Source: Octopus sinensis (lineage: Eukaryota). Taken from it: a stretch of DNA of 64,000 nt. The stretch covers positions 15,562,001 through 15,626,000 of the forward strand of contig NC_042999.1 of the NCBI RefSeq assembly GCF_006345805.1, read 5' to 3'. The translations under genes were made by a program, and so were the position numbers. Each line of letters starts with the position of its first letter. The first letter of the stretch is position 1. Of this stretch, positions 349 through 59,260 are shown piece after piece. The notes under the pieces were generated by a model. The model saw only the letters and a program-made list of their open reading frames with translations, searched no databases and was not told the DNA's origin.

Positions 349-760
349 TTAGAGAGAATGAGATAACAAAGCCAAGGCTGTGAGGAGTTTTCAGGACATT
401 TATAAGGAAATAGTCTTACAGCTGTTTCTAGGATATTATGGATATCCCTTCATCAGAGATGGTGTGAAAAGGTTAAATTGAGAAAATACTTGAGTTCGAA
501 TTATTATGGAAAAGGAAAAGATAGGGAATATAGAGGGAAATAAGAGAATGAAAGTAGAAATAAGATATATAAAGATATTGTAGTTGCAGTTCCATTATTC
601 TAGGGAAATGGTGTATAAAAGTGTTTAAAACGTTTCCTGTGCATGGTATGTAAGTTCCAAAAGCGGTTCATGTTTAGTCATTTCAAAGTGTGGAGCTGTG
701 GAATCTGTGTTGCTTGTTCAAAAGGGTTTTGTGGTGTGAATGAAAATTTGAGAATGTATT
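349..760 (-). mobile_element. Penelope-like element 3' end/pseudo-LTR relic
   Basis: Carries the hammerhead at 414-459 and ends in a (TA)n microsatellite. Upstream boundary uncertain. Confidence 0.55.
414..459 (-). ncRNA. Minimal type-I hammerhead ribozyme motif (Penelope-like), canonical core
   Basis: UCU CUGAUGA A GGGAUAU ccaua AUAUCCU A GAAA CAGCUG UA AGA. Palindromic stem III ACAGCUGU. Confidence 0.8.
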
Positions 761-1049
761 GGTAGTATTTGTGGAAGGATGGAGGGAGGAGAGATATGAA
801 TGATTGAAAGAGGAGATAGGTCAAATTGAGAACAGGAAGACAAAATGAGAGGAAGAAAGAGAGAAATAAGAAAAAAAGGGGAAAGAGTGAAAAAAAAGTG
901 AAGGAAGTGAGAAAAGTAGTGTTAGTTTGCAGTCAAGGTAATGTGATGGGAGGATAGGAGAGGAGTAGGGGAAGGATAGGAAAAGATAGAAGGTAAGGAG
1001 TAAAAGTATGTGAGATATGTGAGTAAGGGTGATATGACAGAGCTGTGTA

Positions 1050-1099
<50 letters not shown>

Positions 1100-1100
<1 letters not shown>

Positions 1101-1310
1101 CATCATCATCATTTAGCGTCCGTTTTCCATGCTAGCATGGGTTGGACGGTTCAACTGGGGTCTGGCAAGCCCGAAGGCTGCACCAGGCCAGTCAGATCTG
1201 GCAGTGTTTCTACAGCTGGATGCCCTTCCTAACGCCAACCACTCCGAGAGTGTAGTGGGTGATTTTATGTGCCACCGACACAGGTGCCAGACGAGGCTGG
1301 CAGACGGCCA
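1100..1310 (-). mobile_element. SINE family B ((gat)n tail, RTE-partner type), 5'-truncated
   Basis: ggcgttaggaagggcatccagctgtagaaac core and catgctagcatggaaaacggacg...(gat)n tail. Nearly identical to 15134-15350. Confidence 0.8.
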
Positions 1311-1592
1311 TATATATATATATATGCATGCATACATATGTACATACATACATGTGTCATTGTCATCCCCATTCCTCATCATTTAACATTTGCTTTCCAT
1401 ACTGGCATGGGCTTGGTGATTCAACAGGATCTCAGAAGCCATAAGATTACATTGGGCTTGTGTGTTTGTGTTTGTTCCCCCACTCAACACACAACAGCTG
1501 GTTTTTGTTCATCTATATCCCCAGAACTTAGCAGCTCACCAAAAGAGGCTGATAGAATATGTACCAAACTTAAAATAAATAAATATATAGAC

Positions 1593-1873
1593 ACTAATAA
1601 AAGGGTTCAGCAAGGATTTGCTTCACCACACACCGAAGTTTAGAAATAGCAGCCAAAAATCTTAGCTATTTCTTCTACTTTAAAAAGGGTCTCCCAGAGA
1701 AGCCAAAATACTTGACGGTTATTTACAAAGGCAGAGAGTAAGAATAACCTTCAAGTATTTTGGCTTCTCTGGGAGACCCTTTTTAAAGTAGAAGAAATAG
1801 CTAAGATTTTTGGCTGCTATTTCTAAACTTCGGTGTGTGGTGAAGCAAATCTTTGCTGAACCTTTTTATTAGT
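1593..1873. repeat. Near-perfect long inverted repeat (about 130-bp arms, short spacer), foldback/MITE-like
   Basis: actaataaaagggttcagcaagg...aatacttga and tcaagtatt...gctgaacctttttattagt are reverse complements with very few mismatches. Confidence 0.9.
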
Positions 1874-3731
1874 ATTACTTAAGTTTGCCGTGAAATGGTC
1901 CTTTTTTCATACCGAATTCTACTTGGTGAAATTATTGATTACTTCTTAATTGATTAATTTTACCCTTTGTTATTATTGATAATAAATATATAGACAGATA
2001 GATGTGTTTGTGTTTGTGTGTGTGCATATAGGCTTCTACACAGCTTCTGTTCGGTCCAGGGTTATAGCAGAAGACATTTGCCCAAGGTGCTGTGCATTGG
2101 AACCAAACCTGAAACCACAAGATTGCAAAGCAAACTTCTTAACCACTCAGCCACACCTTAGTGTACTATTTACATTTTGGCTTACTCATTCAATCTCTGG
2201 TATTCTGTTCTTACTGTAATCATCGAACAGGGTATGGCATAATTTCAATTCAATGCCTGAAAGGGTAGAATGTATTTTTTTTTGTCCCAGTATTGTTTGT
2301 TAGGAAGTATTGTTATTTCTTCCTCGCCACTCACTGAAGGTTTTTGCCTGAAACAGAACTGAAACAGCTTCATTAAAATCAACTTTTGATCCATTTAAAT
2401 GAATGATATTCCTTGTTAAATAAATATGGTAGGAGTGGTTTAGCTCCAAGCATACAAGACTGAGCAATCCAATGATCAGAGTGTTCCACCCATGACCATC
2501 TCGTCATTTTTTTTTTGTATATAAAGAATGACGCAATATAACATATTCTTTATTATCTAAGATGGCAGGGGATGATTTATAAGAGATTTGATTGCATTTA
2601 TGGAAATCTGATGGTTATGTTTAATTTATGTATAGTTGTCATGGTGGTGGCAGATGTTTGATTCAAGATTAACATTTAACCATAATATAGCTATTAATTA
2701 CTAATGCTTATTTAATTAATTTCAACTTCACAGACCCCCCCCCCCCATAAACTATTTTAGTTTTCTTTTTAATTTAACTCAACATTGTCTAAGCAAAAGA
2801 CCAGTTTTGTTACTGTTTTATTTTATCAAGTGTATCAGAGATTCCAGTAGTATTTAAAATCAACATAGAAGAAACCAAAGTGTGGACCTTATAATCTGTC
2901 TCTCTACTAAGAACACTAACATTGATGTTCTCAAACAACAACAATTGCCAGGAAAACTGAAGATTAATGAACACATCTATAAAATGGAGAATTAAAAAGA
3001 GAAGCACAAAGCTTTATGATGTCTTTTTATGAAAAGAAAACCACGGCTAATACTGAAAACCTAATAATGCTAAAGTAAAAATTGACAAGAATGTAAGAAG
3101 CAAGAGAGAGAGCTGTAGTGTGGTAAAGAAAATTCATGCACCGATCATATTAACTTGGGAATGTAGCGAGATAACAGAAAATATGGTAGCGAAAGAATAA
3201 AGGGAAAAATAAATAGGAAGCTTAATAGGAAATACGGGGTCAAAGTTGATGCAAAGTTATAACCTATACAATCAGGAATCTGTTATTGAAAATAATACTT
3301 GTAGCAAGTCTTTAAGAATTCTGCAGCACAAATTGACCATATTACAGAATCATAGAGACCAGGTAATATTCAAATAGACAAGAAAAATGATGAGCTTAAT
3401 ATCAGCATAGACTTCATTACAACATATTGTAGCGGAGAGGAGATGAAAGAATACAAAATCTGAAAATCATCTTGATTTGGACCAGAAAACCATAACTCTG
3501 TTGCCATAGAAACACTGCTCAAGATACAGGAATAAAGATGCAAGTAGCAGAGTTGCAGAATACTGCGATGCCATTCCTTACTCTGAATGAGGCAATCATA
3601 TATTCCTTAGGTCACCAAGTCTCAAGAAGTGAATATATTTTTTAAGAACAATATAGAATTTCATTCATATTGCAAATGTAATGACAATGATGATGATAAC
3701 AATAATCCTAGTAGAAATACTTTTTATGATA

Positions 3732-4241
3732 TCTATATATATAAAACTCTAGTTGTGTGAGTGTCTGTCCCCTTCGATTTAGATTCCTAACTCCTCCCAC
3801 ATTTTGCGGTGCAGTTTAACCAAATTCGGGTATCTTATAGTCGTGATTCATATCGAGCCCGTCTGACTATTAGCGTGCATCAACGATGAGTCTACGATTT
3901 TAAAAATAATTTAACATCATTTTTTATTCCATTTTAATGCATAATTTTTCGTGTGTCGATGGAGGCGGAGTTGGCGTCCATGGTCACACCTGCACCTGTT
4001 TGCTTCTCCCCCTTCCCTCCCTCATGAAGCTGTGGGGAAGGGAGTGTAAGGAAATTAACGTCGTAAAGCGTTGTCAAGGAGATCAGCGTTCTTTTAGAAC
4101 AACGACTTCATGGCTTGAAGACACCAAAACAGAAATGGCTAAGAAAGCCCGAATTGGCATCTATAAGGGAAGTAACTCTCTAAAAATGCTTATATAGTTA
4201 TTTCCCTTACAAACCCGAGCAACGCCGGGCGATACTGCTAG
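3732..4241 (+). mobile_element. Non-autonomous Helitron
   Basis: a|TC...CTAG|t insertion with subterminal hairpin cccgagcaacgccggg. Near-identical copy at 37120-37628. Confidence 0.85.
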
Positions 4242-4320
4242 TATATAATAAAAATGTCTTAAAGCAACAACTCAGCTCACTCATGTCTTACTTCTCAGAC
4301 ATCACCTGCAATTGTTTAGT

Positions 4321-4546
4321 TACTCTTTTACTTGTTTCAGTAATTTGACTATGGCCATGCTGGAGCACCACCTTTAGTCGAGCAAATCGACTCCAGGACT
4401 TATTCTTTGTAAGCCTAGTACTTATTCTATCGGTCTCTTACGCTGAACCACTAAGTCAAGGGGATGTAAACACACCAGCATCGGTTGTCAAGCGATGCTG
4501 GGGGGGGGGGACAAACGCAGACACACAAATATATACATACACATAC

Positions 4547-4578
<32 letters not shown>

Positions 4579-4728
4579 GCTTCTTTTAGTTTCCGTCTAC
4601 CAAATCCACTCACAAGGCTTTGGTCAGCCCAAGGCTATAGTAGAAGACACATGCCCAAGGTACCCTGCAGTGGGAGTGAACCATGTGGTTGGTAAGAAAG
4701 CTACTTACCACACAGCCACTCCTACGCC
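4321..4728 (-). mobile_element. tRNA-derived SINE family A (about 400 bp, internal TA/TG microsatellite)
   Basis: A-box tggctgtgtggtaag head, ccttgggca motif and 3' tail cagcatggcc.cagtcaaat.actgaaacaagtaaaagag. Many copies in the window. Confidence 0.85.
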
Positions 4729-6520
4729 TAGTTACCTCAGTATTCACTACAACATATAACATGCAATAATTTAAAAGAGAATGCAAGGGTCAAAATATTT
4801 AATTTCATTATCTTTGCATCAAAAGGTAACTGGGTTTTTTTGACTCAGAAAAACGAATAAGGTGAGTAAAAACCTGGAGTGACTATTTTCTTATTACAGT
4901 AATGTGGGAATATATGAAAGAGGAGGGAGTTTAAGAGTTTTCACTGATTTTCATAAGTTAGTCAGCATTGGAAGGGATCCATGATCTACACAGGACCTCC
5001 CAGTTTAGCAAGATTGAAGCGGCTGTAGATTAATATGTATAGAAAACATAAAGTTAAGAAGAGAACCTGGGACATGGTTTGAATGACTACAACAAAGCGA
5101 ATCTCATTAAGGGTAAAAAAGGATGAGATAATGGTGCTAAACCAGTCCCTGGGTTAGGTCAACTACTCAGAGATGGTGAGGTAGTGAGAGAGTGTGGGGG
5201 TTCAACAAGTTAGAATAATGATAGGCAATAGCTGCATAGTTCAAAGGAACAGGGCATGTGGTAACCAAAAATGATATAAAGAAGGTTAGTACAATATTGG
5301 ATCGCATGATTATCCTAGTTTAAGTTCATTTTCCATGCTGGCATGGGTTGGACAGTTTGACAGGAGCTGGCAAGACAGAGGGCTGTCCTGTGTTCCACTG
5401 TCTGCTTTGCAAAGCTTCTATGATTGGATGCCCTTTCAAACACCAACCACGTTACAGAAGATACTGGGTGTTTCTTTACATGACATCAACATCAATGAGA
5501 TCACCAAGTAACTCTTAAGGCAAGATCTCACCAAATGAAGGATAGAGCAAAACTAAAATTTCTCAACATTGAACATTTTTGTCGATTATGTATAATTTCT
5601 CTGAAATGACGCACCTACACAGAATGGTACAACTACACACAACACAGTTATATAAACAAGTATCCACAGATGGAAGCTTTGAAAGATGTAACCAAGTCAA
5701 TAGTTGTTCAAAATAATAAAACAGAGAATTCTTTGATGAGACTAATAGGTTTATAATAAAGATTAATGATGATAGTAAATCTTGGGCTAAATCATTTAAA
5801 TCATAATTTGTTCATGAGAAAAAAGTGTACATGTGTACTTGTGCTTGTGTATACGAATTTCTGTATTTGTTTTATCATCAACAACCACCAGATTCTCAAA
5901 TTTCAGTTGGAGGGTATGGTAGAAGTCTTCTTTGACAAAAGAATTATATTAACTCTGAGATTCACGTTGGGGAATAGAATTCGGCCAGGTGATTTGCATG
6001 TCAAACATTGGCAGTAATTTAGCTAATATTAAGTGGAGATGATTTTCCCAGGCAAGAGATGAACCAATCATGATTTAAAACTTCAAAATAATTTACAGGC
6101 AAACATGCACATGTACCCACAATTTCATGCATTAATTAAGAATTAAGAAATGAGTTTTATCTCTGATTAAAAATGCAATTTTTAAGATATGTGAAAACAA
6201 ATGAAAATTTCAAATAAATGTTTATGCGCTCACAGACACACACAGACACTCACACACACACATGAGAAGGACTCATCTGTTTTAAGGTAAATATTAAATC
6301 TCAGTCATATGATTGCATAATAAGTTTTAAATATTCATAATTACACACTAATTTAATCAGCATAATTTAGTTATTATTCCACTAGGTTTTAAATTTGATA
6401 AGAGCATATCTTTTGTAAATAAATAATGAAAGTTAATTTGAATTTCTTTGAAAAATGTTAAAGCCATTGAACTTTGAAAAATTAAATCAGTTTTATATTA
6501 TTTAAAATGATATTTATGAC

Positions 6521-6550
6521 ATATACATGTGTGTGTATGTATGTGCATAC

Positions 6551-6587
<37 letters not shown>

Positions 6588-6871
6588 CATACATGTATAT
6601 ATACAGATACATATATATACATATACATGCATGTATATATACATACATGTATATATACATATACATACACATCCATGTATAAACATATACATGTATATAT
6701 ACATATACATACATGTATATACATATACATGTATATATACATATACATACATGTATAGACATATACATGTATATATACATATGCATGTATATATACATAT
6801 ACATGTATATATACATATACATATATATACACATACATATACATACATGTATATATACATACATGTATATA
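6521..6871. repeat. Compound (TA/CA/TACA/CATG) microsatellite
   Basis: Degenerate acatatacatacatgtatatat units. Confidence 0.9.
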
Positions 6872-7297
6872 TACTCTTTACTCTTTTACTTGTTTCAGTC
6901 ATTTGACTGCGGCCATGCTGGAGCACCACCTTTTGAATTGAGCAACTTGACCCCGGGACTTATTCTTCTGTAAGCCCAGTACACATACACATACACATTC
7001 TATGTACTTATTCTATTGGTCTCTTTTGCCGAACCGCTAAGTAACGGGGACATAAACACACCAGCATTGGTTGTCAAGCAATGCTAGGGGGACAAACACA
7101 GACACATAAACACACACACGCACATATATATATACGACGGGCTTCTTTCAGTTTCCGTCTACCAAATCCACTCACAAAGCTTTGGCCGGCCCGAGGCTAT
7201 AGTAGAAGACACTTACCCAAGGTGCCATGCAGTGGGACTGAACCCGGAACCATGTGGTTGGTAAACAAGCTACTTACCACACAGCCACTCCTGCGCC
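6872..7297 (-). mobile_element. SINE family A
   Basis: Full-length match to the other copies, with B-box ggttcagtccc. Confidence 0.85.
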
Positions 7298-7964
7298 TAT
7301 ATGTTTTTATATAGTTTTATATTGTCTTAAAGTTTCAGAGCAAAAATTGTGGCAATGGGGAGAGTCTGAATGGTGTTCAGCTTACTGCCTCACATTTCTT
7401 AGTTCAATTCTGAATGCAGTCGAATTTACCTTATAACCTTTTAGGAATCAATGAAACAGATATCTGTAACTTAGTGTAGGTAAGTGAACTGATTATATCA
7501 CCTCCACTTTATTCAAAAGCGTGTTCTGCCTAAGAAAAGAATCATTATTTCAATGTCTGTACATATCACACAATGAGATGTCATTTATAAAGGTATCCCT
7601 GATTGTCTAACAGTTAGATGTTCGTTGATGCTGAAGCAAATATTTGAATGCTGAATATTGTGTGTGCAGTAGAAATAGAAACCAAGTAAGTTTTTCATTC
7701 AACTAGTTTAGAGGTGCTGGAAGCAATTAGAACAAAGATCCAGTTCTCCCCAAAAATCGATATAATTTACAATTAATCAATTTCTAAAACAAAAATATCA
7801 GAAAAAAAAAACAAAAAAAAAACAACGCGAATCCTTTCTTACATAATGATATGTTATATAATACATTTGTAATAGTTCTTGGATGTACGTCCTCTTTGTC
7901 ACTGAATATTTACATTTGAATTAAACATTCCAAAAACCAAAGCATGTAACTATTGAATAATTTT

Positions 7965-8093
7965 CTCTCTCTCTCTCTCTATATATATATATGAGTATGA
8001 ATGTGTATTTGTGTATGTGTATGCATATACACATACACATATACAAAAATGCATATATATGTATGTATGTATATATATATATGCTTGTATGAA

Positions 8094-8126
<33 letters not shown>

Positions 8127-8317
8127 GCACGAATGTGCACGTATTTGTGTGTGTGTATGCATACACACATACACATGTACAAACATGCATATATACATGT
8201 TTGTATGAATGTGTATGTGTGTGTGTGTATATATATATATATACACACATACACATTCATACAAACATATATATACATACATACATACATATATATATGC
8301 ACGTTTGTACATGTGTA

Positions 8318-8359
<42 letters not shown>

Positions 8360-8400
8360 TATATCACATGCACACACCACACATACACACTTACACACAG
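7965..8400. repeat. Compound, partly self-complementary dinucleotide microsatellite
   Basis: (CT)n, (TA)n, (TG)n and (CA)n blocks. Confidence 0.9.
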
Positions 8401-9509: not shown

Positions 9510-9534
9510 TCCTACATATATATACATATATATA

Positions 9535-9905: not shown

Positions 9906-9929
9906 TACAGTGGAACATATATGCATATA

Positions 9930-14834: not shown

Positions 14835-15075
14835 TTAGAAGAAATGAGGTACTCAGAAATCTGGATGGCTTTATATTTACAGATATTTATTAGTATGTTA
14901 CATGTTTTTATAAATCATATATCATATATTAGCACTTTTGCCCACTCTAGTGGCGTTATCAAATTTGACAACCCCACTAGAGTGGGCGAAGGCGCTAATA
15001 TATGATTTATAAAAACACGTAACATACTAATAAATATAAAACCATCAAGATATCTGAGTACCTCATTTCTTCTAA
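14835..15075. repeat. Long palindrome (about 120-bp arms), probable inverted Penelope-like pseudo-LTRs
   Basis: ttagaagaaatgaggtactcag...caaatttg (centre 14960-14967)...ctgagtacctcatttcttctaa. Confidence 0.8.
14928..14999. ncRNA. Back-to-back pair of decayed U3-A8 hammerhead motifs at a palindrome centre
   Basis: Plus strand: UUGACAA C CCCAC uaga GUGGG C GAAG GCGC UA. Minus strand: UUGAUAA C GCCAC uaga GUGGG C AAAA GUGC UA. The consensus of the two gives GAAA GCGC UA. Confidence 0.5.
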
Positions 15076-15537: not shown

Positions 15538-17249
15538 ATATATATATATATGATATACAAAAACAAAACAAAAAATTGTGTATGTTGAAAGCAAAACTCT
15601 AAATAATTAAGGAAAATTAAATTTCTGCTCATTTAGAATATAAAAAATGTTGCTTCTTAAACAATTTAATGAGGAATCTTTAAATTTTTGATGAATTTTT
15701 CCCTTTAAGAAACCTTTGTAAAAATTGATTCATCAGTTTCCAACAGACTTTGTTCTACAAACTCAATTAAATTAAGTCAATATTTTATATTTAGGCTTGG
15801 ATATTTTATTAGAGTTTTCAAAGATCATAAATTTGATAAATTGTACAAAATTTGAATTTAATTAATATCAGTTTTCATTAGTCTAATTTAGATAATAACA
15901 TAATTGGTGTGGTTGGGCAATAATTTATGAGAGGAGGGTTTTTTTACATCTAAAAATTCTTATTTTGGTAAAGGTTAAACAATCAACTCAAGAAGTATAA
16001 GATCAGTATTGTAATTTGTTTTCAAGTGTTTGTAAATATATTTACCTCAGCTAATAAAGTAACCCACAAAATTAAAAAATTTTGTTAACTAAATATTGAG
16101 ATTTATTATAAACATAAGCAATCTGTGTCTGTCTGTAAAAATATGTTTCTTTTGAAGAAATTTTAGCAGGTTTTACATCTAAAGAGCAACTTTTGCATCA
16201 CTTTTAAATGTCACCTGAATTAGAGCAGTAAGAAAGTTTACAGATAATTAAGATAACAGAAATCACTAATTTCACAAAAAGTAAACATTTGTACCAGGTG
16301 AACTAATGTTTATGGCAAAAAAAAAAAAATGTATCAGATAATATAAAAGTCCCAAACAGATAAGATAAAATAAAATTATTCTTGTACTGAATTCAGCTAA
16401 AGTAAACCAGTCTTACAGGACCCTTTACATCTTTTTTCAACTGTTACCTTAAGTACTTGTAGCAGTATCTGATATCCTCACTGTTTGAGAGACACAATAA
16501 GAATGATCTCGTTTGAGATTACAACCATCTTTGGCTAGTTTGACCCTGTTGTATCCACAGCTCTGATTGGTTGGCATCTAGTGCGGTTTGTCACTCCACT
16601 TATTTCGCGCCAGGGTGTAAAAGCCAACCAATCACGGCCTTTGGATAGGATGCTTCATTTGAGCCACTTTAACTCTTTAAATAAGCCTGCTTTCGCTATT
16701 CTTCATCTTTTGGCCCCAGACCTTTTAAGGTCTAGTCACTGACCACAGAGCTACTCAGCCATGTTCCAGTTCCAGTGACAGACAGCCAGCCAACCACATG
16801 TAAGCAGGTAAAATGCATGCAACACTACAATAACATTAGCATGACAATAACATTAGCATGACAATAATATCACCTGTCTTAGAAATGAATTGCTTTTAGA
16901 GTAACAATAGTGAAATTATTGTGTCTAGTTCTCAGATGACCTACAACTTATCAAAGGAGCATGTACAGTACATAGAATTATGTACAAATGTTAGGAACTA
17001 GTACACTGCCTGTTATTTCATAAAAAAAACAAAAAACAAAAAACAAAAAACAAAATACAAAATACAAATTACATGAACATATATAAACAGAAGATACAAA
17101 TATTACAGGCATCCCCCACATACACACACTAAATAAACATAAACGCACATAGAGATATAAGCATGCGCAAATGAAGACATACAATAGAAATACAAAATGG
17201 CTGACGGTTAGTAAGGAGAGACACAAATAAGTAAGAAGAAAACAAAGGA

Positions 17250-17289
17250 CCACTGATGCGGTCACAGGAGTGTGACGAAAGAACTCTGG
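17250..17289 (+). ncRNA. Minimal hammerhead motif, A9C variant
   Basis: CCA CUGAUGC G GUCACA ggag UGUGAC GAAA GAAC UC UGG. Confidence 0.6.
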
Positions 17290-17513
17290 CCGAAATAAGA
17301 TTAAGATTAATGTAAAAAATAAATAACACTGAAGCAAAGTAACACCAAATATATAGTGCGTGTGTTTTTATTGGCTAAACTGGCAAAATGACCATTCCAA
17401 AATGTAACAATATCTGTTTCAACACATGACTTCACATAAAAAATCTTGCACAACAAATATTTAAACGTATTTTTGTTCTTGTTTTTGTTTAATATAACAA
17501 TAATAAATAATAT

Positions 17514-17773
17514 AAGCCGTTTGATTCACTTCAACATTTAAGTTTAATTTAAGACCGCGACCTGTTCGCTGACAGCACGGATTTTTGTCAGTGAACAGGT
17601 CGCGGTCTTAATGCGACGAAAATATTTTGACAAATTAAACTTAAATGTTGAAGTGAATCAAACGGCTTTTGTGTGTTTCTTAAATGGCTTACAAACACCT
17701 TCCACGCTGCAATTGTTTTCGTTTCAGCACATGATCTCAGATCAAATCACTTGCTATGCAAGTACATCTCCGT
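17514..17773 (+). mobile_element. Penelope-like pseudo-LTR with a partial inverted copy
   Basis: Inverted arms 17514-17550/17632-17668 and 17551-17574/17586-17609. Contains the hammerhead at 17584-17634. Confidence 0.6.
17584..17634 (+). ncRNA. Minimal hammerhead motif with G3-C8 swapped core
   Basis: UUUGUCA GUGAACA G GUCGC ggucuuaau GCGAC GAAA AUAU UU UGACAAA. 7-bp stem I, 5-bp stem II, palindromic stem III AAUAUU. Confidence 0.7.
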
Positions 17774-18989
17774 AAATAAATAATATAATAATAATAAATT
17801 TCTTTTATTATTGGAGAACTGCATTTCATATTGTTTGCAATGTTTGTTCGTATACCAATTGTGAAATCAAAATCTTTTTATTCATAGTACCTGAAATATC
17901 ATCCAAAGCTTGAGGGACTGATTCAGCATTTTGTTAATCATCAATGTTTGAGTCAGTGTTTATTTGATCTGCGTGAATTAATATATCCTGTTCACCCCTT
18001 AAGAATCACAACTGTATAATAACCCGCATGGAGTTCAACATGACTTCTGCATCAATACCAAACAAGAGCTGCAACAATTTCATAAGACATTGTTGATGGT
18101 GATCGTATTTGTCTACCCATCAAAGCAGTTTTCCTGAGTGAAGAATTCTGTGCAATATCTCAAAAGCGTGTTACTTGACTACGCATTAATAGAACCTATA
18201 CATAGGCAATATTCTTTTAAACCAATTCTAATACTTACAATCATTTGTTCAGAATTCCATTTGATTCTTGATGATATGGAGCTGTTTCCATAAGTTCATC
18301 CAATCTTATTTTGCCACATGAGTTAGTCATTACCATGGAATTTATTGGCCTTATCAGACAGCAATGCTTCTAAAACACCATCTCCAGATATACAATCTTA
18401 ACTGTTTCAACATCTTATTCTTAATCTGTATTACATCTGGCCATCCACCGTATGTTTCAACAAGTATTAAGAACAACCATAAGTTCTTTACATATCCATG
18501 TTTAATTTCTTTAGGCCATTGTGTGAGGTAACTCTCATACAATTTTAGCACACATTGAACATCTTTTATATCATAATATCCTTCACAGTTACCTAGCCAC
18601 CATACTTCAAATTGCAACCGATTCTTTATTGTCATTGATCTACAAAGTGCATCATCATAAAAGGCACAGCTTTTGTTATAAATGTTTTCAAACAGATTAT
18701 TAGAATATTTAATTCTTAATTCTCTATTATACAAAATACCATCTTCAACATTTAAATTCTCTTTCTGATCTCTTAAGTAATGTTTTAATAACAGAGCAAT
18801 TACTCTTATAGATATTATGAATCCTTTTCAAAAATAAATAAAATATTATCATTGGTAGTTTCTACTTCTATATTTTCATGTTTTATAACATCAATTTCTA
18901 CATGAAAGAAAAATTATCATCATCTTCCTTCTCACCACCACCACATCACTCACTACCACCACTACCATCATGATTACATTAACCCTAAC

Positions 18990-19822: not shown

Positions 19823-20671
19823 GTGAACGATATAGAAAGATACTTGAAACCTGACAGATTGAATGTAGACCCAAATTCTACAAATGCGAATAAAACTTTT
19901 AATCACTGGTTTAGAACTTTTACCAACTTTATAGGCTCACTACCAGGGCAGGAAAGTAGGATTATCAATAAACTCAATCTTTTGATTAATTACGTGGAAC
20001 CGAACGTATATGATATTCATTGGTGAAGCTAAGAACTACGAACAAGCTGTGAATACATTAAAGAGTGTGTACATTAAATCAAAGAACATCGTAATGGCAC
20101 GGTATCTTTTAGCCACAAGAAAACAGATACCAGGGGAATCTCTAGACCAGTTCTTAAATGAACTCAAAATATTAGCGAAAAACTGTGACTTTATTGCAGT
20201 GAGCGCTGAGCAGTACTGGTCCAAAATGATTCGAGATGCTTTTATAAATGGGCTCACTTCAAATCAAATACAACAAAGACTATTAGAAAACAAAAGTGTC
20301 GACTTCAGTACAGGTTATGATCAAGCACATTTACAGATGTGGCGCAACAGAGTTCCAGTGTCTTTCTAAACTCTGAGGGTGCCAACTTCAGTCAAACTGC
20401 ACCCATTGTAGCTAAGCCAATAGATTCCCCAAAGCAGGAAGGAAAACACTCTGCCATGACCCGAAAAGGAGACCCCTTTCAATGTTGGTTTTGTGGCTAT
20501 TCTAGACACCCACAGACTCACTGCCCTTCATGGAAAGCAGTCTGTCACAAATGCCAAAAAATAGGGCATTTTGGAAAACTGTGTAGGAGCAACGCAGCAA
20601 CTGTAACACAGGATGAGGGTAAATATGATTTGCCATTGGCAGTATCAGCATCAGCAGGTTCACCCTTCTGA
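19823..20671 (+). pseudogene. gag: Gypsy gag (frameshifted)
   Basis: ORF pieces 19823-20026, 20010-20369 and 20339-20671. ARYLLATRKQIPGESLDQFL and IRDAFINGL motifs. Zinc knuckles CWFCGYSRHPQTHC and CHKCQKIGHFGKLC. Confidence 0.9.
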
Positions 20672-22630
20672 GTAATCTCTATGGTGTTATACTGAACAAT
20701 AGCTATAAAGCCAAAGCATTAATTGATAGCGGCAGCACTGAGAAGAGCTTCATCAGTGAGAAGCTAGTGAACACACTCAACATCAAGACGGTCAAATTGA
20801 AGAATGTCATTGGTATAGCTTCTGCATCTCTTTCTGCAGAATCCAAGGGATACTGCACTGTTTCACTAGCCCTGAATAATCAGAAATACTACCATGTGAA
20901 ACTGTACATGCTCAGAAACTTGTGCACTGACCTAATTCTGGGTACTGACTTCCAAGAACGGTATGAAAGTATTACCATGCAATACGGAGGACAGAGACCA
21001 CCAATAACATTTACTGCACTAACAGCTATGCAGAATGATCCTCCAAACCTATTCGCTCATCTCAGAGAGGACTGTAAACCTATTGCAGCCAAATAACAAA
21101 AATACTCAGAATGTGATCAAGAGTTCATCAGGACAGAAGTACGCCGCTTAGCAGATGCAAACATTATATTGAACCTAGTAACTCCCCTTGGAGATTGCAT
21201 GTGTTAGTTGTTCAAGACAAAAAAAAAACGAAGAATGGTGACTGAATACTCAGAGATGATTAACAAATATACACAGCTTGATGCCAACCACTTTCCTAAA
21301 ATTGATGAGTTACTGAACACTATCACCAAGTATAAGGTCTACAGTACTATAGACTTACGTTTGGCATACCATCAGATTCCTCTATCAGAGAAAGACCGTC
21401 AATTCACTGCCTTTGAAGCTGATGGTAAATTATGGCATTATACTCGGATTCAGTTCAGAGTAACTAACGGCAACGCATGTTTCCAACGTATAATGGACAA
21501 CTTCGTGAGTAAATACAAGCTGCGAGATACGTTCCCATTCATAGACAATTTAACCATATGTGGGAAAGATCAAAATGACCACGATGAAAATTTAGAAAAA
21601 TTTGAAATGGCAGCAAAAAGTGAAGGGCTTACCATGAATGAAGACAAATGCATTTACTCAACAACAACTCTTGACTTTCTTGGATACCGTACCTCACACA
21701 ATACCCTCATCCCTGACCCAGAAAGGCTTGCTCCACTCCTCAATCTTCCTACACCAACTGACCAGAAATTATTAAAACGTATAGTCGGTATGTTTTCTTA
21801 TTATGCTAAGTGGATTTCCAAATTTTCTGACAAAATATATTCTCTAAATAACGTATTAAAATTCCCTCTAAACAACCAACAAGTAAAAGCATTTGAGTCA
21901 TTAAAAGTAGAACTAGCCAATGCTGCCATTCAAGTAATAGATGAGAACATTCTATTTACTGTTGAGACAGATGCTTCGGATTTTGCCATATCTGCGACAC
22001 TAAATCAAGATGGAAGACCAGTAGCATTCCATTCTCACACGCTGCAAGTTAGCGAACAGTACCACTCCTCAGTTGAAAAGGAAGCCCAAGCAATTATCAA
22101 ATCAATTCATCATTGGAGACACTTTCTTCTAGTTAGACATTTTACATTAATTACTGATTAACATTCTGTTGCATTCATGTATAATTATAAAGTGACGAGC
22201 AAAATTAAAAATGATAAAATTATGAGATGACGCATTGCATTATCTCCATATTCATATGATATTCACTATTGCCCAGGATCCAGTAACATTGCTCCGGATG
22301 CATTCACAAGGGTATGCTGTTCAGCAATTAGTTCACATTCACTTTATGAGTTACATGTAGCGCACTGTGCCATCCTGGTGTAGTACGCCTTCGTCATTTC
22401 GTCTGCAGTAGATATCTTCCATATTCATTAGAGAACGTGAAACAAATATGTAGGAGTTGCTCTATATGTCAAGAAGTGAAACCACAATATTATAAACCAG
22501 ACTCAGTTAATTTAATTAAGGCGGCCATGCAGCCCTTCAAGTGAATTTCCATCGATTTCAAAGGTCCGATTTCTTCCATGAAGCATCCTTATCTCCTAAC
22601 AATAGTTGACAAATACTCTCGGTTTCTATT
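20672..22630 (+). pseudogene. pol: Gypsy pol (protease, RT, RNase H, N-terminal integrase) with stops and frameshifts
   Basis: ALIDSGS (protease), IDLRLAYHQI and FPFIDNL (RT), ETDASDFAI (RNase H). HPG...CRSCSIC and ISIDFKGP...IVDKYSRF (integrase), then an abrupt jump to the 3' end. Confidence 0.9.
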
Positions 22631-45828: not shown

Positions 45829-45947
45829 GCTTACGGTCATATCACGTTGAAAGCAACGGTTCTCATCTGATCACTGAAGTTAAGCAATGTTGAGCCTAGT
45901 TAGTACTTAGATGGACGACCACTTGGGAAACCTAGGTGCTGTAAGCA
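45829..45947 (+). pseudogene. 5S rRNA-derived sequence (pseudogene or SINE head)
   Basis: gcttacggtcatatcacgttgaaagc...gatcactgaagttaagcaa...ttagtacttagatgg...ggtgctgtaagc follows the metazoan 5S consensus over about 119 nt with several substitutions. Single copy, not in an array. Confidence 0.85.
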
Positions 45948-48664: not shown

Positions 48665-48915
48665 GGAGAAAATATTTAAGAAAAAGTGGAAGTGGATTGG
48701 TAGCACAATTAGAAAAGACACAGCAAATGTAGCGAAAAGTGCTTTACAGTGGAATCCGTATGGATATAGAAGGAGAGGTAGGCCTAAGAACTTGTGGTGT
48801 AGATCACACAAAAGGAACTAGAGAAAGCGGGACATTCATGGCAGAAGCGAAAAATTATGTGACATGAAATTCAATTATAAGTGGCCTATACTCCGTGTTG
48901 GAAGGTTAAAGGCAG
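48665..48915 (+). mobile_element. RTE-clade LINE 3' fragment
   Basis: KKKWKWIG...ALQWNPYGYRRRGRPK. Confidence 0.7.
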
Positions 48916-51093: not shown

Positions 51094-51396
51094 GTTTGAA
51101 TTCTAGGATACTCAGATACTCAGTTTCTATAGGATATAAGTTATCAAGATCAACATTCCCTTTGAACGTGATGTTAGTTCATTATAAGGTTACTCATTTA
51201 CTGCCAAGTAAACTGGAGCAAGGTGAAATGAAGTGTTTTGCTTAAGATCACAATGTGCTGCCTGGTCTGGGAATGAAAACCATGATCTTACAATCATGAG
51301 CACAACACTTAGCCACCAGGACACATGCCTTTACCCACCAAAAGCCATTAGTTTCAGCAGCCCTAATAAAGGCCATGAACATTGAATTTCTTTATA

Positions 51397-51628
51397 CCTA
51401 TTTCTTTACTACCCACAAGGAGCTAAACACAGAGAGGACAAACAAGGACAGACAAATGGATTAAGTCGATTACATCGACCCTAGTGCATAACTGGTACTT
51501 AATTTATCGACCCCGAAAGGATGAAAGGCAAAGTTGACCTCGGCGGAATTTGAACTCAGAACGTAGCGGCAGACGAAATACCGCTAAGCATTTCGTCCGG
51601 TGTGCTAACGATTCTGCCAGCTCGCTGC
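51397..51628 (-). mobile_element. SINE family C
   Basis: Full unit match. Confidence 0.85.
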
Positions 51629-51796
51629 CACGTGATAAACGGGGAATATAATGGGATACAGTTGCATCACAGGATCAATAAATATTGAAACCATGCCGAG
51701 TAAATATTCTAAATGTAAGAAAGACAGTAATACAGTTAATGAAATATTATCTAATTATGTAAGGGAAGTATGAATTAAAAAATAGTGACTACTTAC

Positions 51797-52330
51797 TCTG
51801 AATAAGTCCAGGCTGAGTCCAAAATGGCCCAGTGAGAGGAAATAATCCACCAAGGTAAACTTTTTTTTTTGTTGAAATAATTTTAGGAAACCATCGTTTC
51901 CATATATGTTCGTGATCTTTTACCCAGCTACAGGCAACTTTACTTGCCCGTATGCTCGGTCTTAAACTTTTTGCATTGCTATAAAACTGAAGCAAATCTG
52001 CGTATTCCTCTTGCGTAAAAGACATCCGAGAAACAGCTTCGTATGCCCGGGGAGCTAATTTAGAAAGAGCTGGTGATGTCATTTTAGTTAGTTGGTTGAG
52101 TTTGAAATTACAGTAGATTGGGTTAGGATCATAAGGACATGATGGGAATTTGATCTGTGTGAAATTGTGATTGAGTGTGAGTGGACTTGGCCACCAATCA
52201 TAAAACAAGACAGGTAAACCCCGCTGTGCACGCTGACGAACAAAGTCTGTCAAATAATGTCCTATCCAAGCTACAATCACTGGTAAGTTGAGCGTATTTA
52301 TCTGAGACTGTAGAAGATGATAGTTCATTT
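51797..52330 (-). CDS. Internal exon: end of OpuAC-like domain and start of ANF-receptor/Venus-flytrap domain (GABA-B-like GPCR, receptor guanylyl cyclase or Venus kinase receptor type)
   Basis: Acceptor tttcttttcacag| and donor |gtaagt, 534 nt, phase 1-1. Motifs VLFYDWWPSPL and ACSWVKDHEHIWKRW (OpuAC-type C-terminus), then VYLGGLFPLTGPFW (start of a class C/ANF ligand-binding domain). Confidence 0.85.
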
Positions 52331-53125
52331 CTGTGAAAAGAAACAGAAATCAAAACAGATTTAACAACATCAATAGTATATCTGGTATAAGATGTATTAA
52401 TACAAAAATATGTTTTGAGATTTCCATCGCTTGAAATGGCTATAGAAATATTGATTTATTGTTTTCATTCAATTTTTTATACAATGAAATAATGAAGACT
52501 TTCCTGAAACACTTAAAGGTTAATTTTAGAAAGAATTTTAACAAGAATATTTCTTGCTATCTTAAAAATTCTTTTCCGAGTCTGAAAGTGACAGAGTGTG
52601 TTTTAGTATATTTACTCAATCTATACAAAGGAGCAACCAAAACTCTTAAAAGTTACATATCCTCTGAAATAATTACCACACATATTTGGGTACTAAAGAA
52701 ATTACAATAGTAAACCTTGTCACCGTTACCGCTATGATCACATGATCACAAACAAAATCATTGATGATGGGTACGAATATTTTACCCATTACCGATGAAG
52801 GGATGCAGTTAATCTTTTGATCAACTATTTCACGCTACAATTTAGCCAAAATGAACTAATCACCAACAACAATATGTGAATTGTAAGACCCTAACTACAA
52901 ATGAAATGTCATTTCAAAGCTGATTGGGGCCTAAATTGTTGGTGCTCTTCACCTTCTGCATCAAAATTGGTTGAAGTAAAGAAACCAACATTTTACAGAG
53001 AATCATTTTGTATTTTTCTATTTGTTTAGATCAGAGTAGTGTCTATGATATAAGATGATTAAAATTCTTAAATAATTACAAAGCACTTTTGTAGGACAAA
53101 TAGAATGAGAAGACAGAATGCTTAC

Positions 53126-53397
53126 CTGGGTAACTTGATAATAGTATAAGGCAACCACCACTGAGGTATTTACAACCTGGCCCTAGTAGGAAACCATTCA
53201 CACAGTCTTTCTCTTTACACAATGGTTCTGCTCCCTGATTAAGTCTTTTTGTCATCACATTTTCAAGTACAGACAATGAATCATTCAATGAAAACCTAGC
53301 AATTACTTGGGGTAGTCGTAGAGCCCGCCAATGATCAATGAATATATTTTGTGACCAGAATTCTGTTGCTATATCTGTCGGAATAAACCAGCCAGCT
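53126..53397 (-). CDS. Internal exon of a putative cell-surface receptor (OpuAC/ProX-like periplasmic-binding region, Cys-rich)
   Basis: Acceptor ttttttctag| and donor |gtaagc. Open frame (R)AGWFIPTDIATEFW...IDHWRAL...CKEKDCVNG...GPGC...GCLILLSSYP. Phase 2 to phase 1, and it joins the next exon in frame (G+AA = Glu). Confidence 0.85.
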
Positions 53398-53764
53398 CTA
53401 GAAAAAATAGAAAATAAAAGGATATACAATTAGATTTGAAAAATTTAAAAAGTTAGAGTTGATGAGGTCATTAATTTAAATGCCAAAAACTTTTAGCTAA
53501 AAATAAAATATCTCTGTAAACAATTTGTTGAAGGTCTTTGATCTGAAAGAGATTTGTGAAAATTTAATAATATCAATAGTTCAATGGAAAGATTTTTGAG
53601 TCCAAGTGAAAGACATTTTTTTTTTATTTTACTTGTCTCATTTTAAATAAATCTCAAAATAAATTTGTATCAAACAGTTCTAACACTTTGTGCCATTCTC
53701 ATAAAAAAAACATTTACACAAAAAGGAAGAACAGATTACAATACATTTATTATTACGCAAATGT

Positions 53765-54117
53765 ATTTATATTGAGGAGGCAAAGTGGCTGAGTTCCTTT
53801 TGACTGTTGGGCTTCATGGAGGCAATGACTGAAACCTTTGGCATTATGTTGTGATTGAGAAGAAGACTCTTCAAGCCGAGCAAAATTGCAGTTGTGGCAC
53901 ATACTGGTGTCACACAAATGGCAGCCATGTTGGTGGCACATAAAAGCACCCATTACACTCTTGGAGTGGTTGGCATTAGGATGGGCATCCAGTAGTAGAA
54001 AACCATGCCAAATCAGACTGGAGTTTGGTGCAGCCTTCCAGCTTAGCAGCCCTAGTCAAACTCTCCAACCCATGCCAGCATAGACAACAGACGTTAAATG
54101 ATGATGATGATGATGAT
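53765..54117 (+). mobile_element. SINE family B-related element
   Basis: Same 3' core and tail, different 5' part. Confidence 0.7.
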
Positions 54118-54640
54118 CTGAAGGACACAGTTCTGAAGATTTGGGATTAAAATGAACTTATATAAAATATAGTAAGTGATGTGTCTTCCTGGGTGAGATG
54201 AATGATCATGAAAAGAAGTTCAGCTATTCATGAAAGGCAATAATAAATATAAACAAGAGCTCTCAGAGAGTGCAAACCTCTGCCAAGGTAACACCAATGT
54301 CCTCTTAACGATTAGTCATAGATGACTTTTAAAATGAGAATATCTGAAATAAACTCAACTACTCTCACAAGCGAGAATACTAAAAATGAACCCAACTGCT
54401 CTCAAAAATTAAGTAACAAATCTGGAAAAAGGAGTTTAATAAGGATTTTGCATCTCATTACAACTTCATTTTCTTCTTGATATTTTTTTCACAAAAATCA
54501 ATTAGAAAATAGTACTAATAACATATTTCCATTTACTTTATCATATATACATGTTCAGCAAATGCAACACTGATTTTTTTTTTTTTCAAATATATAAGTG
54601 TAAAATTTGTAGTACCATGTTTTTATAAACAAACTTTTTA

Positions 54641-54799
54641 TAGGAGTGGCTGTGTGGTAAGTAGTTTGCTAACCAACCACATGGTTCCAGGTTCAGTCCC
54701 ACTGCGTGGCACCTTGGGCAAGTGTTTTCTACTATAACCTCGAGCTGACCAAAGCGTTGTGAGTGGATTTGGTAGACAGAAACTGAAAAAAGCCTGTCG

Positions 54800-54832
<33 letters not shown>

Positions 54833-55030
54833 ATGTTTGTGCCTGTGTCTCCCAACATCGCTTGACATCGATGCTGGTGTGTTTATGTATCCCATAATTT
54901 AGCAGTTCGGCAAAAGAGACCGATAGAATAAGTACTAGGCTTCCAAAGAATAAGTCCTGGGGTCGATTTGCTTGACTAAAGGCAGTGCTCCAGCATGGCC
55001 ACAGTCAAAATGACTGAAACGAATAAAAGA
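54641..55030 (+). mobile_element. SINE family A
   Basis: Near full-length match. Confidence 0.85.
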
Positions 55031-55290
55031 CATTCTACTGTTAAAGTTATTAACAAGCATTTTATTTCTTCAATGTTATTTCTTGTTATAACGTTTATAT
55101 TAAGAAAGATGGAATTTTTAATCTTTATCTGTTTTCCAGTACAAGTTAATACACAGATAAAAATCATGTTTTCTGAGGATTTTTAAAAATCTTTTTGAAA
55201 AATCACTCAAAACTGCAGGAAGAACGAAGTATAGTATGTTCAAAATGTTGAGTATAAGATATCTTATGCTGCAGAGCTACTAAAATATGG

Positions 55291-55620
55291 CATCATCATC
55301 ATCATAGTTTAACGTCCATTTTCCATGTTAGCATGGGTTGGATGGCTAGACCGGGGTCTGGGAAGCCAGTCTGATCTGGCAGTGTTTCTACAGCTGGATG
55401 CCCTTCCTAACGCCAACCACTCCGTGAGTGTAGTGGGTGCTTTTCACGTGCCAGGCGAGCTGGTAACAGCCACGATCAGTTGGTGCTTTTACATGCCACC
55501 GGCACGGAGGCCAGATGAGGTAGTGCTGGCAACGGCCACGTTCGGATGGATCTTTTTAGGTGCCACCAGCACTGGTATCACAACTACAATTTCCTTTGAT
55601 TTTTTGATCGATTTCGATCA
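55291..55620 (-). mobile_element. SINE family B
   Basis: Same core and tail. Confidence 0.8.
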
Positions 55621-56479
55621 TGTAATACATATGCACACATGTACAAAATGATGTTGCCCTGATTCAAAGTTTGTGGCATGAAACTCTGAGTTGCAACAGA
55701 ATGAAGCACCAAATGCCAACCAATAATTAATATCTCTGCAACATGCACTGAATACATTTTTTCCTTTGTAGACAAAAATGTGTGCGTGCGTGCATGCGCT
55801 CATGTGTGAGCTGAGAGGTAAATAGATATAGAAACACACACACACACAAATTTATAGACATGAAATATGAATAACTTTTTCTTTTCCATTCCTCTTGCAG
55901 CAGGCATTTTCACAAGGAGAGTTAATTAAATAATAATGCTCGTCATAACTAACATATTTTTCCAAATTATTTCTGTTGAATTCGTTTTAATCAATTAAGA
56001 ACATTCAGCAAAATACTTGGCAGTATTCAATTCACATTGTGAGTTCAGATCCCACGGTGGAAAAGGCAATTACATCAAGTGAAATTGGTAGCCTTGTGCC
56101 TGTATTAACCACCACCACCACCACTGCTGCCACTACTACTACTACTACTACTATTGAAGATGGCAAAATGCTGGATGAATTTTTTTGTTCATTTAATGAC
56201 TTTCTTTCACAACCATGGTTGAATTTGTATTACATAATTCTTGAGCCAATATCATAAACCCCCGAATGAATGACAGAATCAATTTAATTGACAATACCCC
56301 TCACATTTGAATAAGTGTCAGTGTAAAAAAATCATTAGAGTTATTATTGAAGATTAAAGAACGGTAGGAATGGTAAAGTATTGAATTAAAAGTCTAACAG
56401 CATATAGTTTCATTGCTCTACATTCTGAGTTCAAATACTGTTGAAGTTAAATTTGTCTTTCGTTTTGGGATTTAGTTTA

Positions 56480-56761
56480 CAAGATTCTTTATGTGAGTTC
56501 GTGTGTTGAAGCATATTCTGTTGTGTCTGGGAAGAGTCATTTTCTTTTTGTGCCTTATAATGTATCACACACACAGGTAAAATTTCCACTTATTTCTTAT
56601 TTTTATTTTCTTAAAATTTTCGTTGTGTCATGCAACCTTTTCAATAGTCTTGACTCTGTCCGTTATCATTTTTATTTTCCTAAAATTTTCGTTGCGTCTT
56701 GCAACCTTTTCAATAGGTTGCAAGACGTAATGAAAATGACTTTCCCCAGACACAACAGAAT
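56480..56761 (-). mobile_element. Penelope-like pseudo-LTR relic with tandem and inverted partial copies
   Basis: Direct repeat of the hammerhead segment, plus an inverted fragment (about 56730-56761) matching about 56515-56546. Confidence 0.55.
56679..56717 (-). ncRNA. Minimal hammerhead motif with U3-A8 core (second tandem copy at 56611-56647)
   Basis: CCUA UUGAAAA G GUUGC aagac GCAAC GAAA AU UU UAGG. Confidence 0.65.
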
Positions 56762-58399
56762 TAAATTTGTCTATCTTCTGTCTAAAGGTGAAATAAATAG
56801 TAGGCAGGTACTAAAGATTATACAACTATACTCTTATCTTATAACTATGAAGCCTTGTGTGCCAATGTGAGAAATTATTATTATTATTATTATCAGACTA
56901 ATAATAAAAGCACGTTCAATTAGTGCTAATTTGTTTATAGTATTCAACATTTAAAGTATTCTGTTACATTTCCAAATGTCACTAAGGTTGATTTTGTTGT
57001 TCATATCTCTGGGATAAAGTAAATACGGCTCATACATTAAGATATAATATTTCTTTGCCTTTATATTAATTACTTGCGAAATTGGCTTTCTGTTTAGTCA
57101 AATACGATAGCATTCAAGTAAGATTTTTTATTAAATTTCTGTTATGAAATAGTGATAGCAGCTCTGAAGAGAATGTGAATATTCAATAATTTTCTAGCAA
57201 ATAGTGGAGCAAAAGTAATTGAATCTTCACGAATTAAAAAGATAGTAATAGTATCAATAATATCTGAAGTTCAAGTATTTTTTTTTAGGGAACGTTGCAT
57301 CAGCATCCTAAGCTAATTGACTTGATATGAGGTTTCAAAACGAAAAGGTTTATCATTGTCATATAAAAGCCACTTGACTTTATTTTGCCACTTGCAAAGA
57401 TGGTAATCGATACAGAGAAATATGATTAGGAGAGATCTTTTCACTTAGAGTAAAAGACATTCTTTCAAGAGGTACAAACAGAAATAATTTTATGATAGGA
57501 TTAAAGGAGTATTTTGTAGACTAATTGAAGAGTTGTTATTATTGGTCTGACTAATATCAGATAATATTACTTTAGAAATGTTTGGTACTAGAATTGTTCA
57601 AGGATTGTATAGATACATTGATACAGGAAGATAAAGATTTCTTTGATCTAAGTTAACATCTGTTGTGATGCGGATATGGTACAATGGTTAAAAGATACTA
57701 TTAGAAGTTATAGGAAATGATGTTATTTACACACACACATACAAACACACAAATATAGGTGTGTATGTGTGTGTGTTCATGCACACATATGCACATGAAT
57801 ATACACATGCACATACACACATATACAGATACAGAGTGATGGATAAACAAATATATATACCCTCACACACGCACATATATATATGCATACAACATAATTT
57901 CTTTCTACTATTTCAACACAACATAATTTACTCCAAGGTGTGCGTGGAAGACACCTATCCAAGTTGTCCAAGGTGCTGCACTGTTGTGTTGAACCCAACT
58001 CCAAATATATGTACACACACACATATACCCAATCACCCAGCTACACTCCATATATATATCACGTGATCATGTGACCGACCAGGCTAACAAACGTTGCTAC
58101 ACATCACTGGTCACAATGCATTTCGCATTACTTTAGCCTTCAAATGACACCCCCCTGCTGGCTATATATATGTATATATATAAAGAGGTATTAATAAGGG
58201 ATTATCAGTCTGGAGCAAAATACTTCTTAAGCTAATACAAATACACTAGGCTAACAAAAGATTTTTTGATTGGTATAGAATTCCAGGTAATCCTGAGGTA
58301 AGATCCAAAGTCAAAGTCCATCCCCAATTGACTTAGTAAATTCATGGTTGCATTACCATTATTTAAGCCTTTTCTTGTGTGTGTGTGTGTGCACGTACA

Positions 58400-59038
58400 T
58401 GTTAGCTACTACACATTCTTTATTTTCTCTCTCCTTGTCTTTTTCTGTGGAAGAGCATAGGCTCGAAACATTAAAGACTTTTTCACTTCCTGAGCATTAA
58501 ACTAATACATCTGTTTGTTTCTACACCACCTGTCTTCGTCTTTTGTGTTTTTGCGAATTCTCCCCATATATTACATGCTCATGTGGTCACACCAGTTTGA
58601 TCCTGTCTCCACATCTTAACCCAACAAACTTTTCTCGGATTTTCTACACCTACACTTTGGACTATTCTACCTGAACATTCTAATCTCCGACACTTCGGTT
58701 GCACCTCTCCTACCCATTGATTACATTGGACTCTTCTGTTGATAAGAAATTGCACCAATATACCACGACATTTGAAGTTTTGAACCTTTTGAACTTTTCT
58801 TAACTTTTTTGTACTTTCTGCTTTCTCCTCTGTGACCCTTCTGTCCAGCATTTGCCATGATAGATCGCTAGCCACTAGATATTCTTTATTTTCTCTCCTT
58901 GTTTCTTTCTGTGTTCCTTCCTGTGGAAGAGCATAGGCTCGAAACCTTAAAGACTTTTTCACTTCCCGAGTGTTAAACTAATACATCTGTTTGTTGTATA
59001 CACCACCTGTTTTCATCTTTTGTTTTTTTGTGAATCCT

Positions 59039-59094
<56 letters not shown>

Positions 59095-59260
59095 CAAGAA
59101 TAATAATAAGAAAAGCAAGTCAAGGTAAAAAAATATGAAAAAGCAGAGTGTATTTGGTTGATGCTCAGGAAAACTGGAAGAAGTCATTAACATTTCAAGT
59201 ATATACTTTTCTGCAGGAAGGATAGATAGGAATTGGACAGTCACTGCATGTTGAAAATGC
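58400..59260. mobile_element. Cluster of Penelope-like pseudo-LTR relics with hammerhead-like motifs
   Basis: Direct repeat of about 150 bp (about 58415-58568 and 58880-59041), each with CUGUGGA A GAGC auag GCUC GAAA. A diverged inverted relative at 59184-59219 lies across a (TA)n tract. Confidence 0.6.

Follow-up and report, generated by a model that had tools for sequence, protein, structure and literature searches.

We analyzed a 64,000-nucleotide stretch of the Octopus sinensis genome (assembly GCF_006345805.1, contig NC_042999.1, positions 15,562,001 to 15,626,000 of the forward strand; hereafter the window), in which short repeat relics on both strands carry motifs with the layout of the minimal hammerhead ribozymes of Penelope-like elements (PLEs). 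The genome is 2.72 Gb, AT-rich and microsatellite-rich. A preliminary description of the window had picked out these sites, and we labelled them as families A (414), B (17584), C (14928), D (56679), E (17250) and F (58442-59219). All of the cores listed in that description are present in the sequence, and positions 3 and 8 are complementary at every one of them (Table 1). E is directly followed by B at window positions 17150-17775, and no PLE open reading frame (ORF) lies within the 64 kb.

Table 1. Predicted hammerhead motifs and associated features in the window (nt 3, nucleotide 3 of the core).
Feature	Position	Strand	Details
Family A minimal hammerhead	414..459	-	Canonical CUGAUGA core, nt 3 at 456; 7-bp stem II with an unpaired A on either side; 8-nt palindromic stem III; A17
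Family C foldback arm 1	14928..14964	-	UUGAUAA, nt 3 at 14962; G12 lost; relic
Family C foldback arm 2	14963..14999	+	UUGACAA, nt 3 at 14965; A15.1 changed to G
Family E hammerhead, C at position 9	17250..17289	+	CUGAUGC, nt 3 at 17253
Family E tail, first PLE ORF codons	17388..17470	+	Stop within this copy
Inverted, truncated family B partner (foldback)	17513..17574	-	
Family B hammerhead, G3-C8 core, intact	17584..17634	+	GUGAACA, nt 3 at 17591; z -2.85; 7-bp stem I; extra G; G10.1-C11.1; palindromic AAUAUU; U17
Family B tail	17684..17775	+	Translation homologous to E and D tails
Second family D copy, tandem, decayed	56613..56647	-	Core nt 3 at 56644
Family D hammerhead, U3-A8	56679..56717	-	UUGAAAA, nt 3 at 56713; extra G; palindromic AAUU; U17; foldback precedes motif
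Family F copy 1	58442..58475	+	CUGUGGA, nt 3 at 58445; U at position 6; stem III decayed
Family F copy 2	58918..58951	+	CUGUGGA, nt 3 at 58921; stems I and III damaged
Family F copy 3	59186..59219	-	CUGCAGA, nt 3 at 59216; old, decayed

Most of the window copies are damaged. The B and E copies and the first copy of D agree with the majority sequence of their families, and the A copy departs from it by one wobble pair. GAAA is lost in both C arms, stem III is non-palindromic in all three F copies, and stem I is broken in two of the three. In D, the fourth pair of stem I is supplied by the foldback junction, and the foldback forms a competing hairpin. A strict descriptor applied to the window matched two of the sites, compared to 0.02-0.12 palindromic matches in shuffled sequence (40 shuffles each), because the other sites are decayed or atypical.

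At the level of the families, the pattern holds. Family majorities were first taken from the 30 best loci per site, a choice that is biased toward the best matches; our unbiased sample consists of 120 evenly spaced 10-kb stretches (1.2 Mb). The core, stem II, GAAA and UH are retained in the genome-wide family majority of each site. When positions 3 and 8 were left free, the descriptor returned 28 matches in the sample compared to a mean of 1.3 in six block shuffles, and 17 of the 28 were Watson-Crick at 3-8 (11 C-G, 3 G-C and 3 U-A), as were 11 of the 14 matches with a palindromic stem III. A homology collection over ~2 Mb yielded 14 seeded families, and the 12 with at least five copies entered a family-level test, which left out N (two copies) and J (one copy), a few two-copy families being unseeded. 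The majority at 3-8 is paired in 12/12 of these families (7 C-G, 4 U-A and 1 G-C), five of which have a fully canonical core, and no A3-U8 family was found in the ~2 Mb. Permuting position 8 among families gave P = 2.7e-4, or 2e-3 with relatives collapsed (nine states), values that are optimistic since the families are related; the proposed covariation of 3 and 8 across families is supported. Within families, C-G was found in 37/40 A copies, G-C in 77/82 B copies and U-A in 40/48 D copies. Rough genome estimates from the sample, with foldback arms counted twice, are 11,000 copies for A, 20,000 for B, 2,000 for C, 9,000 for D and 50,000 for F. A CUGANGA-GAAA search would, as anticipated, overlook families that hold ~44 of the 98 copies in the unbiased sample, and census counts obtained with such a search are too low.

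The families proved to be less independent than first described. B, D and E had been presented as sequence-unrelated relics of independent families, but they are homologous and form one clade: their motifs align, and a tail encoding a homologous N-terminal peptide begins 70-110 nt after the motif in each of them. This homology removes the word unrelated and at the same time makes a stronger case for covariation, with three pair types found inside a single clade. An alignment of B, D, E, N and Q (five rows only) has changes on both sides in 6 of 11 pairs, and its 3-8 states are U-A, C-G, G-C and U-G.

The architecture given in the preliminary description applies to part of the set. A short stem I, a stem II of at least 4 pairs, GAAA and UH are found in the majorities of A, B, D, E and F. 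The single extra nucleotide, which lies between positions 9 and 10.1 and is accompanied by G10.1-C11.1, occurs in B, D, E and F, whereas stem II is flanked by an unpaired base at each strand in A and C (A/A and C/C, respectively). Stem III is palindromic in the majorities of A (8 nt), B and C (6 nt each) and D and F (4 nt each), whereas that of E (AGAACU) is partly self-complementary. C combines the basal C/C mismatch of stem II with a 2-bp stem I, and its 40 arms, of which foldback arms are not independent, include decayed forms as well as U3-A8 with GAAA (19), U3-G8 with GAAA (5) and C3-G8 with GCAA (4). The C3-G8 haplotype, in which GCAA represents A13C, is seen for example at loci L079, L293 and L361-L363. 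With compensated 3-8 pairs allowed, the strict core is present in A, B and D and in the main haplotype of C. It is absent from E, F and the GCAA haplotype of C, which we accordingly do not class as active hammerheads.

Their place, layout and links to ORFs and tails support the assignment of these motifs to PLE minimal hammerheads, predicted to self-cut, as had been suspected. The motif lies 0.4-1.5 kb 3' of a GIY-YIG domain in B, E, F and G (a family outside the window), and at one locus in C. In E, it is located in the 3' pseudo-long terminal repeat (pLTR), ~470 nt 3' of an ORF with a YVDD reverse transcriptase (RT) motif, a CX4CxxC linker and GIY-YIG, and five loci carry open frames of 882-1,044 aa, usually together with an inverted truncated partner. 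Pfam gave weak matches of this ORF to RVT_1 (E = 0.0016) and to GIY-YIG (E = 0.0031), neither of which reached the cut-off, and the Atlas neighbours of the protein at 0.97-0.98 carry RVT_1/GIY-YIG. A 307-aa E fragment gave no match in Pfam, and a PDB sequence search gave no meaningful match. In three loci, the B motif follows without a break from a GIY-YIG remnant that shares 54% identity with that of E (20 short upstream stretches and five extended ones were covered); a search with the B tail peptide yielded no full-length B ORF among the 150 candidates scored out of 13,995, the longest frame being 143 aa. F has GIY-YIG 360-900 nt upstream in six loci and RT remnants in three (L220, L266 and L297). 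In B and C, the ORF is represented by an endonuclease remnant only. The U3-A8 family G follows a GIY-YIG that is ~30% identical to that of E, which places U-A in at least two PLE lineages. A CX2-5CxxC linker precedes GIY-YIG in E, F and G, and the insertions include foldbacks, tandems and inverted truncated copies, with (TA)n flanks and either of two 3' ends.

Several further observations concern the same elements. G and another U3-A8 family, P, have a 6-nt palindromic stem III and lie 3' of GIY-YIG remnants (L222:9279-9316, L248, L083 and L230:6289-6333). Different PLE families are often directly adjacent (E then B, D then B, M then C), also outside the window (L340, L360, L363 and L366), an arrangement that would fit a common (TA)n target preference. 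The pLTR of B forms head-to-tail arrays of ~160-170-nt units (L038, L040, L041, L057 and L058) that resemble non-LTR retrozymes. At the 5' junction of B, the element starts with G-A-G after unrelated sequence in 12/21 copies (L031-L060 and L216-L335; window 17570-17576), and the native sequence upstream has C-A-G with a branch-point-like motif before it; the G-A-G start could reflect a cap G copied by reverse transcription where the RNA begins, or a very short first exon joined by splicing. Apparent links between A and GIY-YIG at L102 and L108 were rejected, the remnants lying nearby but discontinuous with the motif.

By treating the 3-8 pair as the key feature, the preliminary description passed over odder changes that are fixed elsewhere in the core, namely C at position 9 in E and U, or C, at position 6 in F. 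Position 9 is C in 91/91 collected E copies, and exact genome-wide matches number 2,624 for E C9 compared to 319 for E A9. An intact RT-GIY-YIG ORF for this young family is found elsewhere in the genome. Since the A9 copies (three distinct insertions) are 77-86% identical to the C9 reference, with C9 copies mutually ~93% identical, and since an older E relative also has A9, C9 is likely derived and recent. Minority A at this position occurs in contigs of all four runs examined, although such contigs show neither RNA ends nor strand. Older relatives of E at L205:3511-3551 and L243:5140-5185 have U3-A8 and A9 cores. In F, position 6 is U in 64 copies, C in four and A in none of the 68, compared to A6 in 24/24 copies of its sister family M, and N7 is the sole freely varying core position among 21 unbiased F copies. 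From comparison with characterized cores, those of E and F are likely impaired in cutting.

Much of this pattern has precedents. Cervera and De la Peña (2014; PMC4209133) reported a U3-A8 variant in Schistosoma PLEs that was missed by the descriptor, with ~1,300 matches, together with the extra nucleotide, the palindromic stem III and low dimer cleavage; the idea of U3-A8 cores in PLEs that a canonical descriptor does not see is thus not new and dates from 2014. By place and layout, B, D, E and F belong to these minimal hammerheads. The octopus families share with them, including the U3-A8 families of Schistosoma mansoni, a short stem I, the extra base, G10.1-C11.1, palindromic stem III and placement in the pLTR, as well as the presence of many families per genome and the U3-A8 swap. 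They differ in the 10.1/11.1 mismatch of families A and C, and among the representative rows of Fig. S3 that we compared, there was no G3-C8, U6 or C9. The small PLE hammerheads of Lünse, Weinberg and Breaker (2017) have the same short palindromic stem III and cleave as dimers, according to a review (PMC6765202).

Core variants have also been described in other settings. Frangieh et al. (2024; PMC11167929) reported that an engineered C3G/G8C change partly rescues a PLE hammerhead, whereas G3-C8 is the natural majority of family B here. According to the same paper, the Poseidon element PAc of Anolis carolinensis requires protein for cleavage, cleavage is dispensable for insertion in vitro, and the tail lies in the ORF start. 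The octopus elements resemble PAc in having a hammerhead beside the ORF start, a tail made of the first ORF codons and copies from unprocessed RNA, but the CX2-5CxxC linker of E is of the Neptune/Nematis type. With these endonuclease-positive PLEs (Craig et al. 2021; PMC8557442), they share a C-terminal GIY-YIG, a Zn-finger-like linker, inverted 5'-truncated partner copies, tails and (TA)n targets, a likeness drawn from linker and layout rather than from an RT tree. The core search reported in that paper used cuganga and gaaa, a pattern that would leave B, C, D, E, F and G undetected; its authors describe the function of PLE hammerheads as unclear and suggest that they may parasitize PLEs. A pairwise scan found that only the G:C swap rescued mutants of the U-turn region (PMC9901934). 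Among natural hammerheads, U3-A8 and an A6C variant cleaving below 0.1 per min (Perreault et al. 2011; PMC3088659) and an A9U variant described as functional (Eckert et al. 2023; PMC10085705) are known. These sources offer parallels for U3-A8, slow A6C, A9U and a U-U mismatch at 10.1/11.1, but as rare examples, whereas here such changes are fixed in families of thousands. In the literature covered, from which Lünse 2017, Przybilski & Hammann 2007 and bioRxiv supplements fall outside, we found no natural PLE family with G3-C8, A6U or A9C, and G3-C8 only as an engineered change.

The explanation that we favor, with a probability of roughly 0.7, is that these are PLE hammerheads in which the 3-8 swaps are compensatory and C9 and U6 are impaired but tolerated. 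The motifs would be minimal type I hammerheads in the pLTRs of several endonuclease-bearing PLE families. By analogy with published elements (PMC4209133 and PMC11167929), the element RNA would begin within the pLTR, a short way before the motif. With possible help from the element protein, two such RNAs would then join at the palindromic stem III, which in B, D and F has too few pairs to close within one molecule, and the cut would fall after H17, possibly only with protein bound. Changes at 3-8 would preserve the self-cleaving fold, and the pair has likely switched by compensation through a U-G step, of which the U3-G8 haplotype of family C is an instance. Partial activity is expected of the G3-C8 core, given that its engineered counterpart rescues a PLE hammerhead and is the only rescue in the pairwise scan, and the changes at A6 and A9 are expected to slow cleavage. 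Families with A9C and A6U would have spread despite a slow or inactive core, cleavage likely being dispensable for copying. The ends of genomic fragments also favor this explanation. Outside the loci anchored on the family in question, only 1 of 192 fragment starts falls within 2 nt of the predicted cut, and the starts are concentrated 5' of the core, local-alignment starts being approximate, which suggests that genomic copies derive mainly from uncut RNA. In E, the start lies 3' of the site in 40 of 43 fragments, of which many are likely cross-matches to D tails. We infer that the window copies themselves are inert relics.

Several results weigh against this explanation. Short stem III duplexes are weak on their own, with calculated energies of +2.2 kcal/mol for AAUU, -0.2 for AAUAUU and +1.4 for AGAACU; only the A duplex is strong (-11.1 kcal/mol). 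Eleven of the 28 sample matches are non-Watson-Crick at 3-8, through decay or U-G, and the permutation values carry the optimism noted above. The best 150 of 239 Rfam matches in the window include no hammerhead family and consist of repeat-driven miRNA matches plus one 5S rRNA copy. The PLE link of C comes from a GIY-YIG remnant ~0.85 kb upstream in one of six loci (L364, E = 2.5e-6), D is tied to PLEs by tail homology alone, and A has no continuous ORF link at the loci examined. Finally, conservation in F across the 21 copies is 0.95 for the core compared to 0.69 upstream and 0.82 downstream, which is a poor fit with a core that is inactive and unconstrained.

The same evidence can be read in two other ways that keep the PLE setting. 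One is that the fold is retained for its structure, as a cue to the PLE protein in binding, dimerization or the start of translation, with catalysis no longer selected in any family. The sweep of A9C through the youngest family, the fixation of U6 across the F copies, the 10.1/11.1 mismatch in A and C, the GCAA haplotype and the near absence of copies that begin at the cut would all suit such a role, as would the dispensability of cleavage in vitro (PMC11167929); U6 would moreover let F close up into a rod, U4-G5-U6 pairing with bases of stem III. However, what is conserved includes U4, G5, G12, A14 and the 3-8 tertiary pair, which are relevant to the active site, N7 alone varies freely in F, and the families with a fully canonical core are hard to place, so we consider a purely structural role unlikely. 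The other is that every variant, A6U and A9C included, is active in vivo, with the dimer or the PLE protein compensating for lost contacts. Here the hammerhead-like conservation profile of F across diverged subfamilies is a point in favor, together with the functional A9U ribozyme (PMC10085705) and the PAc hammerhead, which cuts only with its protein (PMC11167929). Single changes in the U-turn region, on the other hand, had low activity with no rescue except by the 3-8 swap (PMC9901934), A6C is slow (PMC3088659), and C9 could pair with the catalytic G12. We regard activity of all variants as slightly less probable still than a structural signal.

Explanations outside PLEs fare far worse. Independent elements, SINE-like (short interspersed nuclear element-like) or retrozyme-like, might have converged on the architecture, as the missing ORF link of A and the short head-to-tail arrays of some B copies could suggest, but B, C, D, E, F and G are each tied to PLEs through an ORF or a tail, and B, D and E have a common origin, which makes convergence very improbable. 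Foldback palindromes can create stems or compete with them, and three of the sites lie within foldbacks; an origin by chance or as a by-product of such palindromes is nonetheless refuted by the 21-fold excess over shuffles and by the retention of the motif in non-foldback copies and in family majorities.

The window also holds features that are separate from these motifs. A 5S rRNA copy (45829-45947, plus strand; Rfam, 103.5 bits) is probably a pseudogene or a SINE head. An inverted repeat at 1593-1873 has near-perfect arms of 131 bp (98%) with a 19-nt spacer, and no hammerhead core was found in it. Broken protease and RT frames resembling an LTR retrotransposon lie at 20629-22158 on the plus strand, and a 186-aa open frame at 51792-52349 on the minus strand ends in a likely host gene exon.

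PLE minimal hammerheads with a covarying 3-8 pair are already known. What appears to be new here, judged from sequence, is an abundant natural G3-C8 family, the occurrence of three pair types in one clade, and A9C and A6U fixed in successful families. Matched natural pairs are available on intact or near-intact elements (E C9 and E A9; F U6 and M A6; B G-C compared to D U-A and E C-G), so that the need for cleavage by PLE hammerheads becomes directly testable. It is possible, if doubtful at present, that this genome records PLEs losing or rewiring their ribozyme while still mobile, with C-G, U-A and G-C in one clade, A9C having swept ~8 to 1 over an ancestral canonical A9 in the youngest autonomous member of that clade, and a second lineage of ~50,000 copies keeping U6 under selection; cleavage would then be dispensable or even selected against, or a protein-assisted hammerhead would operate with a different active-site sequence.

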